Assembly: GCA_963770895.1 (NCBI GenBank)
Contig: CAVYRF010000002.1
Coordinates: 3,904,001 to 3,968,000 of the forward strand
Direction: 5' to 3'
Origin: an uncultured Acidobacteriota bacterium
GTDB lineage: Bacteria; Acidobacteriota; Thermoanaerobaculia; Multivoradales; UBA5704
Length of the DNA stretch: 64,000 bases
In this document: positions 1 through 57,612 of the stretch, piece by piece
Numbering within the stretch: the first letter of the stretch is position 1
Layout: every line of letters starts with the position of its first letter
Program-made: the position numbers and the translations under genes
Notes under the pieces: generated by a model
What the model saw: the letters and a program-made list of their open reading frames with translations, nothing else
What the model was told of the DNA's origin: nothing
Databases searched by the model: none

Positions 1-91
1 GCGCGGCGGCACCGACCGCGCGCAACGCAAGCGGCAGGCGATCGAGGAGCGCCAGCGCGCCGCGCGGCTCCTCAGGGGGAACCGTTCGTGA
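1..91 (+). CDS. 3' end of an upstream gene, probably an NRPS ending in a carrier domain plus docking tail (truncated by window start)
   Basis: Frame 2 reads RGGTDRAQRKRQAIEERQRAARLLRGNRS*. The TGA (89-91) overlaps the GTG start at 88 (GTGA). The basic helical tail resembles the tail of gene 2, which also precedes a KS. Confidence 0.65.
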   Translation, partial: RGGTDRAQRKRQAIEERQRAARLLRGNRS

Positions 92-3000
92 GCGAAGCGC
101 AGGGTGTGGCGATCGTCGGCCTGAGCGGTCGATTCCCCGGCGCCGAGGACGTCGAGGAGCTGTGGCGCAACCTCGCCGCGGGCGTCGAGTCGATCTCCCG
201 CTTCTCGCCCGCGGAGCTGGCGGCCGCGGGGCTCGACGCGGCTCGCCTGTGCGATCCGCGGCTGGTGCCGGCGCGCGGCGTGCTCCGCGGCGTCGAGCTG
301 TTCGACGCCGCCTTCTTCGGCTTGAGCCCGCGCGAGGCGGCGATCGCCGATCCGCAGCAGCGCGTCTTCCTCGAGTGCGCCTGGACGGCGCTCGAGGATG
401 CCGGCTGCGACCCCGCGACCTGCGACGGGCTGATCGGCGTCTTCGCCGGCTCTGCCCTGAGCTCCTACGCCTGGAACAACCTGCGCTCGAACCCCGAGCT
501 GCTGGGCGCGTTCGGCGCCTTGCAGCTCGGCATCCTGAACGGCAAGGACCACCTGCCGACGCGGGTCTCCTATGCCCTCGACCTCAAGGGGCCGAGCGTC
601 GCGGTGCAGACGGCGTGCTCGACCTCGCTCGTCGCCGTCCACCTCGCCTGCCTGGCGCTGCTCAACTACGAGTGCGACCTGGCGCTCGCCGGCGGCGTCA
701 GCATCGCGGTGCCGCAGCGCGCGGGCTACCTCTACGAGGAGGGGGGGATCCTGTCGCCGGATGGCCACTGCCGCGCCTTCGACGCCGCGGCGCGCGGCAC
801 CGTCATGGGCGACGGCGTCGGGGTGGTGGTGCTCAAGCGCCTGGCCGACGCGCTGGCCGACGGCGACCGCGTGCACGCCGTGATCCGCGGCTCGGCGATC
901 AACAACGACGGCGCGGCCAAGGTCGGCTACACGGCGCCGAGCCTGGACGGCCAGGCGGCGGTGATCGCCGCCGCGCAGGCGGTCGCCGGGGTGGCGGCGG
1001 AGACGATCGGCTACGTCGAGGCGCACGGCACCGGCACGCCGCTCGGCGACCCGGTGGAGATCGCCGCGCTCACCCGCGCCTTCCGCCTCAGCTCCGAGCG
1101 CAGCGCCCACTGCGCCGTGGGCTCGCTCAAGGCGAACGTCGGCCACCTCAACACCGCCGCCGGCGTCGCCGGGCTGATCAAGACAGTGCTTGCCCTGGAG
1201 CACCGGGCCATCCCGCCGACCGCCCATTTCGAGCGCGAGAATCCGCACATCCCGTTCGCCGGCAGCCCCTTCTACGTCGCCTCGCGGCTCGCCGAATGGC
1301 CCGCCGCCGGCACGCCGCGGCGCGCCGGCGTCAGCTCCTTCGGCATCGGCGGCACCAACTCGCACGTGGTGGTCGAGGAGGCGCCCGCCACCGCGGCGTC
1401 GGACGCCGGACGCCCCTGGCAGCTGCTGGTGCTGTCGGCGAAGACGGCGACGGCGCTGCGCGCCGCGGCCGGCAACCTGGCGGCGCACCTCGGGCGCAAT
1501 CCCGACCTCAACCTGGCCGATGCCGCCTTCACGCTCCAGGCCGGCCGCGGCCGCATGGAGCACCGCCTGGTGGTGGTGGCCCGCGACGCCGCCTTTGCGG
1601 CGCGCGAGCTGCTGGCCGCGGATTCGGCGCACGCCGTCGTGCGGCGCGAGGAGGCGCGCGAGCGGCCGGTGGCGTTCCTGTTTCCGGGCCAGGGGGCGCA
1701 GTACGCCGGCATGGGGCGCGGCCTCTACGAGGGCGAGCCCGCCTTCCGCGAGCAGGTCGACCTCTGCGCCGGGCTGCTCGCGCCGCACCTCGGCGAGGAC
1801 ATCCGCGACGTGCTGTTCGCCGCCGCGTCCGCGCCGGCCGACGCGCGCCTGGCCGCCACCGCCTTGGCCCAGCCGGCGCTCTTCGTCGTCGAGCTGGCCC
1901 TGGCGCGGCTCTGGCAGGAATGGGGGATCGAGCCCGAGATCATGATCGGCCACTCGGTCGGCGAGTACGTCGCGGCCTGTCTGGCGGGCGTGATGAGCCT
2001 GCCCGACGCGCTGCGCCTGGTGGCCGCCCGCGGCCGGCTGATGGGCGCCCTGCCCGCGGGCGGCATGACCGCCGTGCACCTGGCGGCCGCGGCGCTGCGG
2101 CCGCTGCTGCCGGCGGGGCTCGACGTGGCGGCGGTGAACGGTCCTGCCCTGACCGTGGCGGCCGGACCGGGCGCGGCGCTCGCCGCGCTCGAAGCGGAGC
2201 TCGCGGCGCGCGGCGTCGATCACCGGCGGCTCAGGACCTCGCACGCCTTCCATTCCGCGATGATGGAGCCGATTCTCGAGCCATTTGCCCGCGAGGTGGC
2301 GGCGATCACCCTCGCCGCACCGCGCCTGCCCTACCTGTCGAACCTCACCGGGCGGCCGGTGACCGCGGCCGAGGCGACCGATCCGGCGTACTGGGTGCGC
2401 CATCTGCGCCACGAGGTGCGCTTTGCCGACGGCGTCCTCGAGCTGCTGCGCGACCCGCGGCGCGTCTGCGTGGAGCTCGGTCCGGGGCGCGCCCTCTGCA
2501 CCTTGATGCGGCAGCACCCGGCGGCGCGCGACGTGGTGGCCATCCCGGCGCTGCGCGCCCAGGGGCACGCGGCGGCGGACGGAGAGTGGGCGCTGGGCGC
2601 CCTGGGACGCGCCTGGCTCGCCGGTGTGCGCGTCGACTGGCACGGTTTCCACGCCCACCACCGGCGGCGGCGGATCGGTCTCCCCACCTACCCGTTCGAG
2701 CGGCGGCGCCACTGGATCGAGGCGCGGGCCGCGGGCGGCCCGCCGCACGACGCGGCGGCCGGCGAGGGAGCGGCCGATCCGGCCGCCTGGTTCCACGCCC
2801 GCGTCTGGCGGCGGTCGCCGCGGCCGGGCGCCGCCGCGCCGGCGGCCGGGAGCTGGCTGGTGCTCGCGCCGCAGCGGTCGGGCGCCGCAGCGGCTGGCGC
2901 CGCGGCGCTGGGGGAGGCGCTGCGCGACCGGCTCGCCGCCGGCGGCGGCCGGGTGCTGCTCGCCGACGCGGCGCGGACGGCGGAGGTGTCGCGCCTGCTC

Positions 3001-56394: not shown

Positions 56395-56562
56395 GACTTC
56401 GCGACGGCGGCGACGGCGACGATCAAGGAAGACGACGCCGGATTGGCAAAACGCCGTCGACGCATCAGCGGACTTGTTGCAAACACTTATTGGCGCTATG
56501 CTTGGAACGCCGCCCGACGGCGCGCCGCCGCGCCGCCGCGCCGCCGCAAGAAAGGATAGCCC

Positions 56563-57612
56563 GTGATCGACAACCCCGAGAGCGCCCCTGCCGCAGGCGG
56601 GATTCAGGGTCGGGCGCGGCGCCGCTCCATCGGTCTGACGCTCGAAAACCTGATCGAAACCCGCACCCTGACACCGCTGGGCGAGCTGCCCCTGGTGATC
56701 TCGCCGCGCGTCCCGGGGCTCGATCTCGCGGTGTGGGCGGCCGATCAACGCGGCTTCGTCGAGGCGAGCCTGCTGCGTCACGGCGGGATCCTCTTCCGCG
56801 GTTTCGCCATCGATCAGCCGCAGAAGCTCGAGACCTTCATCCATGCGATCTCCGGCGAGGCGCTCGAGTACCGCGAGCGCTCGTCGCCGCGCAGCGCCGT
56901 CGAAGGCCGTATCTATACTTCGACCGACTATCCGCCGACGCACTCGATCTTCCTGCACAACGAGAACTCCTACCAGACCGTCTGGCCGCTCAAGATCTTC
57001 TTCTGCTGCCAGACCCCGGCGGCTGAGGGCGGCGAGACGCCGATCGCCGACTGCCGGCGCGTGCTCGCCGGCATGGACCCCGCGGTGCGCGACCGCTTCA
57101 TCGACAAGGGGTGGATGTATGTGCGCAATTTCGGCGACGGTCTGGGGCTCGACTGGCCCACGGTCTTCCAGACCTCCGACAAGGCCGCGGTCGAGGAGCA
57201 CTGCCGCAAGAGCGGCATCCAGGTGGAGTGGAAGGCCGGCGATCGCCTGCGCACCCGCGCCATCCGGCCGGCGGTGACCCGGCATCCGAAGAGCGGCGAG
57301 ATGCTCTGGTTCAATCACGCTACCTTCTTCCACGTCTCGACCCTGGCGCCCGACATCCGCCGGGCCCTGCGCGCCGAGTTCACCGACGACGAGCTGCCGG
57401 CCAACACCTATTACGGCGACGGCAGCCCGATCGAGCCCGAAACGCTGGATCATCTGCGCCGTCTCTACGAGCAGGAGACGCTCTGCTTCCCATGGGAGAA
57501 GGGCGACGTCATGCTGCTCGACAACATGGTCGTCGCACACGGCCGCTCACCCTTCCGCGGCGAGCGCAAGATCCTGGTGGGCATGGCCGAGCCGGTACAG
57601 CGCGAAGCTTGA
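56563..57612 (+). CDS. SyrP-like TauD/TfdA Fe(II)/2-oxoglutarate dioxygenase (carrier-bound amino-acid beta-hydroxylase)
   Basis: HGGILFRGF, YTSTDYP, facial triad HNE...H (IFLHNENSY; DNMVVAHGR), WFNHA. Confidence 0.9.
   Translation: MIDNPESAPAAGGIQGRARRRSIGLTLENLIETRTLTPLGELPLVISPRVPGLDLAVWAADQRGFVEASLLRHGGILFRGFAIDQPQKLETFIHAISGEALEYRERSSPRSAVEGRIYTSTDYPPTHSIFLHNENSYQTVWPLKIFFCCQTPAAEGGETPIADCRRVLAGMDPAVRDRFIDKGWMYVRNFGDGLGLDWPTVFQTSDKAAVEEHCRKSGIQVEWKAGDRLRTRAIRPAVTRHPKSGEMLWFNHATFFHVSTLAPDIRRALRAEFTDDELPANTYYGDGSPIEPETLDHLRRLYEQETLCFPWEKGDVMLLDNMVVAHGRSPFRGERKILVGMAEPVQREA

Follow-up and report, generated by a model that had tools for sequence, protein, structure and literature searches.

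What would an assembly line of this length and order make, is it still whole, and has its product been met before? These questions are raised by a stretch of 64,000 nucleotides, hereafter the window, at positions 3,904,001 to 3,968,000 of contig CAVYRF010000002.1 in the genome assembly of an uncultured Acidobacteriota bacterium (GCA_963770895.1). On its plus strand, from 88 to 48904, three translationally coupled megasynthase genes form an assembly line of about 49 kb, and six accessory genes lie downstream of the third, up to position 57612. We consider it probable that the window holds the downstream two thirds of a hybrid nonribosomal peptide synthetase (NRPS)/type I polyketide synthase (PKS) cluster of about 81 kb, with five collinear megasynthase genes, about 20 modules, the six accessory genes and a chain order that can be inferred from their arrangement. 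The domain order, the pocket codes of the adenylation (A) domains, the intact frames within the window and the folds or families of the accessory proteins are direct observations. Its notable details are a mid-chain aminotransferase module, a module split between two proteins and accompanied by a separate TauD-family dioxygenase, an N-methyltransferase within a heterocyclization (Cy) module, and two accessory families that escape profile searches.

A hybrid assembly line and its domains

At a GC content of 72-82% across positions 1 to 57612, long open frames occur on every strand and in every frame, and we therefore used the GC content of third codon positions (GC3) to choose the frame and strand of the megasynthase genes and of the accessory genes alike. 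A scan of GC3 by phase gave about 0.94 in a single coding phase through each of the three megasynthase genes, which argues that no frameshift is hidden within the window, and neighbouring genes share bases between stop and start at 88/91 and 31841/31844. Domain orders were obtained from Pfam searches of 18 consecutive pieces of 1000 residues from the three long plus-strand frames, together with scans for core motifs, and condensation (C) domains were located with a hidden Markov model (HMM) built from six C domains of this cluster. Domain E-values run from 1e-13 to 1e-104, so chance is no issue. The catalytic motifs are present (A3-A10 cores, GGxS carrier serines, HHxxxDG, and GHSxG in the acyltransferases), with two exceptions, the first C-like domain of the second gene and the C domain of a module that has no A domain. 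By Pfam, HMM and motif scans the window holds two ketosynthase-acyltransferase (KS-AT) modules, ten A domains, one Cy domain, two embedded N-methyltransferases (MT), one epimerization (E) domain, one aminotransferase, one A-less module of a C and a carrier (T) domain, and one thioesterase (TE), just as the original prediction, made from the letters of the sequence, had listed them. Collinear C-A-T modules and modules of KS, AT and acyl carrier protein (ACP) thus stand on the same proteins and are closed by a terminal TE, as in a hybrid modular NRPS/type I PKS line. An Rfam search of the window gave no match.

The first open reading frame, ORF1 (PKS/NRPS-C; 88-19023, plus strand, 6311 aa), starts with GTG and reads KS-AT-spacer-ACP-Cy-A(MT)-T-C-A(MT)-T-C-A-T-E-C. 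Its KS (103..1233; ketoacyl-synt 2.2e-72, Ketoacyl-synt_C 7.2e-43) is followed by an AT (1675..2496; Pfam 8.6e-56) with the motifs GHSVGE and HAFH, the latter of which we take to mark a malonyl-type AT, and then by an Ala-rich spacer (2725..3957) and an ACP (4000..4191; PP-binding 5.3e-13). The Cy domain (4285..5637) has DYLIADAWS in place of HHxxxDG and leads into the A domain A1 (5683..8290), which carries an N-methyltransferase insert between its A8 and A10 cores (core of the insert 7222-7530). After a T domain recognised by Pfam (8365..8553) come a C domain of the main, LCL-like clade (8626..9957; HHIVSDG), the A domain A2 (10018..12700) with the second N-methyltransferase insert (core 11590-11901), and a T domain (12790..12978; Pfam). 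The next module comprises a C domain (13048..14391; HHIAADG), A3 (14458..15897), a T domain with the motif GGDSI (15976..16158) and the E domain (16210..17547; HHLVVDGVS). The protein ends in a further C domain (17623..18936; HHLILDG) of the DCL/dual clade, which forms a split module with the first domains of ORF2. The two methyltransferase inserts, each between A8 and A10, can be aligned from one end to the other, across some 450 residues, with residues 447-906 of PDB 5wmm (2.5e-62 for A1 and 9.1e-62 for A2), and both are therefore of the backbone N-methyltransferase type. This entry, deposited as 'NRPS', is presumably the A4-M4 part of thiocoraline TioS; its N-methyltransferase also lies between A8 and A10, whereas one of the window's inserts, unlike that of 5wmm, sits in a Cy module.

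ORF2 (NRPS-D; 19050-31844, plus strand, 4264 aa) has its ATG at 19050, with GGGGGAG 8 bases upstream, and reads C-like-A-T-(C-A-T)x3. The C-like domain (19071..20354) has LPALCADAAS at the position of HHxxxDG, lacks both histidines, and scores 122 bits against the Condensation family, as against 250-350 for the other C domains. The split module is completed by A4 (20421..21870) and a T domain found by Pfam and motif scan (21936..22127), and three C-A-T modules with Ser (22200..25298), Thr (25362..28520) and Gly-like (28590..31703) codes follow.

ORF3 (PKS/NRPS-E; 31841-48904, plus strand, 5687 aa), whose ATG overlaps the ORF2 stop, reads KS-AT-ACP-aminotransferase-C-A-T-C-T-C-A-T-C-A-T-TE. Its KS-AT-ACP portion (31871..34870; Pfam, HAFH in the AT) is followed by an aminotransferase (35375..36460; Aminotran_3 8.2e-54, ORF3 residues 1179-1540), so that at domain level a class-III pyridoxal phosphate aminotransferase is fused between KS-AT-ACP and C, the arrangement of a PKS-aminotransferase module. 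Downstream lie a C-A-T module with a Ser code (36635..39808), in which the C domain reads HHLVTDG and the T domain carries GGDSI; the A-less C-T module (39947..41563), whose C domain belongs to the DCL/dual clade and reads PHLIMDG; C-A-T modules with an Ile/Val-type (41630..44743) and a Cys-like code (44810..48007); and the TE (48077..48859; 8.4e-29).

A tree of 20 C-superfamily domains, all from this cluster, resolves the Cy domain, the E domain, a main clade of 13 together with the starter C, the C domain after the aminotransferase on a branch of its own, and a pair formed by the ORF1-terminal C and the C of the A-less module; the first C-like domain of ORF2 has a long branch to itself. Each member of the pair, the DCL/dual clade, follows a GGDSI-type carrier, and GGDSx carriers are described as preceding E, dehydrating C, C/E and DCL domains in the available portion of PMC10880069.

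The loading modules had been expected upstream of the window. A scan of the genome contig recovered two further NRPS genes there, on the same strand, with seven more modules. The whole line, about 73 kb long, thus has two PKS modules and 17 A domains besides the A-less module, and the 13 modules first counted become about 20. The more distant gene, NRPS-A, has the order T-C-A-T-C-A-T, with HHIVTDL as the motif of its first C domain. NRPS-B has five C-A-T modules in a frame open from about contig position 3887959 to window position 91; its 3' end occupies positions 1..91 of the window, on the plus strand, and its stop overlaps the GTG start of ORF1 by 4 bases.

Substrate codes, tailoring genes and the predicted product

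Nine pocket positions were read from an alignment of the A3-A8 cores of all A domains, with columns set by the Thr domain; that this domain gives the textbook Thr signature validates the choice of columns. In order, the codes are DLYNLSLIW for A1 (Cys), DLYDCSLVW for A2 (Cys-like, with Asp at 278), DAWQFGLID for both A3 and A4 (a code that we take to specify Gln), DVWHVSLVD for A5 (Ser), DFWNIGMVH for A6 (Thr), DIIQQGLVW for A7 (Gly-like), DVWHISLID for A8 (Ser), DAFFLGVTF for A9 (Ile/Val type) and DLYDLSLVW for A10 (Cys-like, again with Asp at 278). All ten agree with the specificities first proposed. The available text of PMC12283262 gives DLYNLSLIWK for Cys, DFWNIGMVHK for Thr, DVWHxSLVDK as Ser-type, DLTKVGHVGK for Asp/Asn and DILQLGMIWK for Gly, and DAFFLGVTFK stands at Ile/Val positions in Table 1 of PMC2533009.

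The six genes downstream of ORF3, put forward at the outset as tailoring and export genes, are real. First comes a FabG-like short-chain dehydrogenase/reductase (SDR) of 256 aa (48915..49685, plus strand, ATG at 48915), which is kept beside the megasynthase in the related loci L004, L005 and L089 at 70-74%. It is followed by a putative O-carbamoyltransferase (49736..51757, plus strand; Carbam_trans_N and Carbam_trans_C) of the same type as NovN (9s2t), GdmN (7vyj) and TobZ (3ven), with full-length matches to the first two (2.1e-159, 535 bits, for 9s2t; 2.3e-155, 522 bits, for 7vyj), which is consistent with the carbamate that had been predicted. The related clusters L004/L088 and L089 lack this gene; in them the SDR is directly followed by the next gene of the series, and the carbamoyltransferase gene looks like a lineage-specific insertion.

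That next gene (51800..53266, plus strand) encodes a protein of 488 aa with no Pfam or NCBIfam match. A model built from a 16-sequence alignment (predicted local distance difference test, pLDDT, 82.2; predicted template-modelling score, pTM, 0.83) has the two Rossmann-like domains of the GT-B fold, and among the PDB matches listed for it the best are GT4-type GT-B sugar transferases or their relatives (E 7.0e-11 to 6.4e-09, template-modelling score, TM, by target 0.43-0.64). Five of the 16 family members touch PF00534 (Glycos_transf_1) at E 0.057 or worse, which falls short of membership in that profile. The family shares an invariant stretch FG..PLE (F298, G299, P302, L303, E304), which we take to resemble a glycosyltransferase (GT) donor-binding motif. 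The protein is thus predicted to be a divergent, GT4-like GT-B glycosyltransferase, and the sugar of the original prediction is plausible on the model. A search of a collection of 5.8 billion clusters yielded 18 relatives, none with an assigned function ('hypothetical' at most). Of the 9 GT loci on metagenome contigs with at least 44% identity, 5 have an A domain in their flanks, compared with 4 of 25 more distant loci.

The fourth accessory gene (53278..54642) lies on the minus strand by its GC3 pattern and encodes a protein of 454 aa, the model of which (pLDDT 92.4, pTM 0.92) matches human glutathione synthetase (4.5e-16), the putative glutathionylspermidine (GSP) synthase 3n6x (TM 0.64), YgiC/YjfC and the ligase Cp1B. 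Pfam and NCBIfam give chance-level matches for it, and one fused relative touches CP_ATPgrasp_2 at 0.00074. By its fold it is a predicted ATP-grasp ligase of the glutathione synthetase/glutathionylspermidine synthetase type. Its family has 1590 representatives, and all three of the long members scanned, of 150 listed, are NRPSs with a C-terminal copy, in one case after the TE. The domain also occurs in up to six tandem copies within a single protein of 3684 aa (among P0139, P0242, P0243 and P0261). Both this family and that of the predicted GT could be general, unannotated tailoring enzymes of nonribosomal peptides. The fifth gene (54670..56394, plus strand) encodes a fused permease/ATPase ABC exporter of the cyclic-peptide exporter subfamily (TIGR01194, 2.7e-141, 471.9 bits against a cut-off of 286.2).

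The sixth gene (56563..57612, plus strand; PF02668, 7e-52) encodes a stand-alone Fe(II)/2-oxoglutarate dioxygenase of the TauD/TfdA family, a candidate amino-acid beta-hydroxylase. An arrangement of an interface C-like domain with a stand-alone beta-hydroxylase is described in the antiSMASH 8 paper, which cites Reitz et al. 2019. As in siderophore pairs of this kind, a histidine-less C-superfamily domain stands directly N-terminal of an A domain and the TauD-family gene is separate; in contrast to them, the A domain here reads Gln rather than Asp or His, and the C-like domain is the N-terminus of its protein and is paired with an active C domain on the preceding one. The C-like domain of ORF2 is therefore a candidate interface domain for the TauD protein, and the arrangement fits beta-hydroxylation of the second Gln, as had been proposed. 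A predicted complex of the two proteins scored 0.46, and the best of three controls 0.00; repeated runs agreed in at least 82% of contacts, with partner pLDDT of at least 83. Of 78 solved complexes 51 passed the mark used, as did 2 of 108 mismatched pairs; passes at 0.60 or less came from 5 of the 78 solved complexes and from all four passing mismatches (of 180). The result lends weak support.

Read in order, these parts suggest the following route. The chain would start on an acyl- or aminoacyl-loaded carrier domain at the N-terminus of NRPS-A, and the seven upstream modules would add, by their codes, Gly-like, Leu-like, Ala-like and Asp residues, an Ala (from an A domain that is frameshifted in the assembly) and two residues to which no type is assigned. 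ORF1 would contribute one malonyl unit, the keto group of which is perhaps reduced in trans by the SDR, followed by a cyclised Cys from the module with both Cy domain and N-methyltransferase, an N-methylated Cys-like residue, and a Gln that the E domain after its GGDSI carrier would convert to D-Gln. D-Gln was part of the original prediction and is well matched by the domain order; the thiazoline of that prediction is in keeping with the Cy domain, and the N-methyltransferase in the same module means that a plain thiazoline is not the sole reading. The terminal DCL-type C domain of ORF1 and the C-like, A and T domains of ORF2 would together add the second Gln, which the TauD protein would hydroxylate on its carrier, and ORF2 would continue with Ser, Thr and a Gly-like residue. 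ORF3 would add a second malonyl unit, and its aminotransferase would turn the beta-keto group into an amine; as this unit follows a Gly-like residue, a 3,4-diamino acid would result, in line with the diamino acid first suggested. The next Ser would be epimerised or dehydrated by the DCL/dual-type C domain after its GGDSI carrier, and the dehydro residue that had been suggested is thus possible. The T domain of the A-less module would be loaded in trans, Ile and a Cys-like residue would follow, and the TE would release the chain. If iturin and microcystin are a guide, the ring would most likely be closed by attack of the new beta-amine. Late in the pathway a sugar would be added, a hydroxyl (possibly one of that sugar) O-carbamoylated, an amide formed by the ATP-grasp enzyme, and the product exported.

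The mid-chain aminotransferase module invites comparison with McyE/NdaF of microcystin and nodularin and MycA/ItuA of mycosubtilin and iturin, in which a beta-keto thioester becomes a beta-amino acyl unit that is passed to the NRPS and whose new amine later closes the macrocycle. At the level of domains, the string KS-AT-ACP-aminotransferase-C is common to them and to ORF3. The present module differs in that it would act mid-peptide, after a Gly-like residue, and give a 3,4-diamino acid instead of a beta-amino fatty acid or Adda; it lacks a C-methyltransferase or an acyl-ligase partner, and its host is an acidobacterium. Taken jointly, these readings outline something that we regard as possible rather than probable: a new class of peptide-polyketide of about 2 kDa and the first assembly-line product assigned to Thermoanaerobaculia-like Acidobacteriota. 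Its long tail would contain D-Gln, beta-hydroxy-Gln and a thiazoline or thiazolidine bearing an N-methyl group; a 3,4-diamino acid in mid-chain would connect this tail with a small macrolactam at the C-terminus, the ring being closed at the new amine as branch point. The molecule would also have a sugar, attached by a new GT-B subfamily and carbamoylated, and an amide formed by an ATP-grasp family that elsewhere is fused to NRPS termini.

The same parts could be read as those of a metallophore of the siderophore kind, with the beta-hydroxy amino acid, the thiazoline or thiazolidine ring and side-chain thiols or amines as metal ligands, rather than of an antibiotic-type lipopeptide. Three Cys or Cys-like modules favour that account, and the Cy-A(MT)-T module resembles pyochelin-type logic. 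However, a scan of flanking genes gave no TonB-dependent receptor, no periplasmic binding protein and no siderophore-reductase family. The exporter belongs to the cyclic-peptide type, hydroxylation would fall on Gln and not on Asp or His, and eighteen residues are far more than known peptide siderophores contain. We consider a metallophore quite improbable.

Doubtful sites and the integrity of the line

Several points weigh against the route and product outlined above. No A, CAL or CoA-ligase domain precedes the first carrier of NRPS-A in the neighbouring genes scanned, which are unrelated. For the 'Cys-like' codes with Asp at 278, no precedent was found in the searchable literature text, so that three or four of the 'sulfur' positions may hold another small amino acid; speculatively, an acidic residue at 278 could suit a small cationic side chain such as that of diaminopropionate. 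N-methylation beside a Cy domain in one module is chemically awkward unless the ring is reduced. To our knowledge the two occur in one module only in PchF of pyochelin, where a separate reductase must act first, and no PchG-type reductase was seen among the genes scanned. The AT-ACP spacer of ORF1, about 480 aa long with 145 Ala in the 480 residues counted and lying within a stretch of 81.7% GC, matches no Pfam family at E<=1 and has a single, chance PDB match (E 2.6; search at E<=10); it is possibly a decayed or relic ketoreductase, as judged from its sequence. The C domain of the A-less module has PH for HH, its first His being replaced by Pro. The TauD protein could act on the upstream Asp instead of the second Gln. 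VldE, a pseudo-glycosyltransferase, is among the matches of the 488-aa model, and the fold is thus no proof of sugar transfer. Finally, two indels that compensate each other put about 187 codons of the third A domain of NRPS-B into the wrong frame, and the A3-A5 motifs and Ala code of this domain appear in another one.

The last of these points bears on whether the line works at all. The original prediction held that frameshifts or missing loading modules upstream would suggest a dead cluster; in the assembly the upstream genes show a double frameshift and no loading A or CAL domain was found there, while the window's own frames are intact and seven upstream modules were recovered. The indel junctions lie at contig positions 3896197 and 3896756 (about -7803 and -7244 relative to the window), both in C/G runs. 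In two other public runs, contigs of about 97% identity read 2 and 1 bases more (CG and C) at precisely these junctions and so stay in frame. The five public runs compared held about 0.3 of the words; contigs identical to the host genome, from two of them, end short of both junctions, and the runs are kept as contigs only, so that depth and absence are uninformative. Either the consensus is wrong at both junctions, or the two deletions are real, restore the frame between them and leave one A domain dead.

A JGI metagenome contig of 517,796 bases, which carries orthologues of ORF1 and ORF3 in collinear arrangement (identities of 72.7% over 6338 alignment columns and of 73.0% over 5712), offers a second view of these sites. 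The orthologous proteins, of 6306 and 5669 aa, have identical Pfam domain sets, and a 67% homologue of the predicted GT is also present (P0290, P0031, P0005). The six A-domain codes of the orthologue are the same as those in the window or differ at 1-2 positions; in the code of the Cy module it has Asp at 278 where the window has Asn. Its A-less-module C domain has the intact histidine pair (HHLVMDG), in contrast to the PH of the window, and the AT-ACP spacer is 53% identical between the two, compared with about 73% overall.

Taken at their worst, these sites would mean that the cluster is decaying or dead and yields no product, its frames open only since stops are rare at 75% GC. Such a view can draw on the double frameshift, which garbles the A3-A5 core of one A domain and which the 97%-identical contigs do not share, on the altered histidine of the A-less module set beside its orthologue, on the first C domain of ORF2 without both histidines, on the spacer without a detectable domain and on the loading domain that was not found. 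The 488-aa protein, used as a marker, was moreover found in 1 of 41 genomes, the host itself (the 40 relatives are 81-96% complete, and many are fragmented). Yet GC3 stays at about 0.94 in one phase over 49 kb, and every other core motif is intact. Together the indels amount to 3 bases, and both fall in C/G runs, where long-read consensus errors are to be expected; they are unverified, since the contigs identical to the host genome stop before reaching the junctions. According to the antiSMASH 8 paper, lines that begin with a carrier and C-like domains devoid of the histidines are known to work, and the conservation of pocket codes between two lineages, at about 73% identity, speaks for purifying selection. 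On balance a dead cluster seems unlikely to us, and a nearly complete line of about 20 modules the better account. As such it is a concrete target for synthesis or heterologous expression, for which the 73% orthologue can guide the repair of doubtful sites.

Relatives and host

The nearest relatives of the megasynthases are metagenome clusters or clusters in metagenome-assembled genomes (MAGs), at 58-73% identity, and rearranged related clusters occur in two Thermoanaerobaculia MAGs. Among the matches listed, proteins with an organism name, from cultured bacteria, have 46% identity at best with coverage of about 59%, or 55% across 33% of the query, in agreement with the initial statement that no characterised compound matches. 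It could be that the cluster is the orthologue of a characterised pathway that our searches missed, given that the protein search takes candidates sharing exact words and of 0.55-1.75x the query length. This is very unlikely in our view. For ORF3 residues 900-2700, only the protein itself and the JGI orthologue P0031 (71%) exceed 55% among 120 matches listed, of 900 that passed E<=1e-20; the organism-named matches are as distant as stated, the 18 GT-family members have no assigned function, and the literature yielded no compound with this combination of features and nothing relevant on the odd codes. By protein-level search and literature, the cluster is apparently uncharacterised. It is an uncharacterised member of a very well-known type of system, and it leaves the understanding of such systems unchanged while adding a member, perhaps a scaffold.

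The host genome, of soil type (8.16 Mb in 3 contigs, 70.7% GC, 95% complete), carries the cluster on a contig of 5.8 Mb. The best matches of its RpoB, at 78% and 77% identity, are in two MAGs, one of Thermoanaerobaculia and one of Acidobacteriota, and those of Pseudomonadota and Myxococcota reach no more than 62%. This comparison places the genome with Thermoanaerobaculia-like Acidobacteriota and led us to reject the actinomycete or myxobacterial origin that high GC might suggest. Candidatus Angelobacter was also considered and rejected, on account of its 55% GC and its place in group 1 (PMC9723581, available portion). Acidobacteriota are abundant in soil and very few of their metabolites are known, according to the abstract of PMC13712943. 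The genome contains 36 KS matches on both large contigs, about 25 of them in frames of more than 1300 aa, and the present cluster is thus one of many. One phosphopantetheinyl transferase match and one MbtH-like match were found genome-wide, about 1.5 kb apart at 2.497-2.499 Mb of the contig.

Beyond NRPS-A, a MacB-type permease on the opposite strand and large repeat proteins likely mark the edge of the cluster. The latter are very large proteins of secreted type, one with LVIVD, bacterial TSP3, Big_7 and CarboxypepD_reg domains and another with Glucodextran_B and CBM96. Between NRPS-A and NRPS-B, at about -16994 to -16071 relative to the window, a small gene encodes a protein with a signal-peptide-like N-terminus and a CxxC motif, which weakly resembles glutaredoxin-like or protein disulfide oxidoreductase structures (E 0.0025) and may be relevant to a Cys-rich product. 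On the other side, immediately beyond the TauD gene, the minus strand from 57717 to 61407 encodes a histidine kinase (HAMP-HisKA-HATPase), an OmpR-type response regulator and a 482-aa protein of the serine beta-lactamase/D-aminopeptidase family; these could serve regulation of the cluster and self-protection or processing, or could be unrelated. A class III/IV lanthipeptide-synthetase-like gene (1035 aa; Peptidase_S26, RamC_N, Pkinase, LANC_like) lies at -44015 to -40908 relative to the window, about 17 kb upstream of the NRPS cluster.

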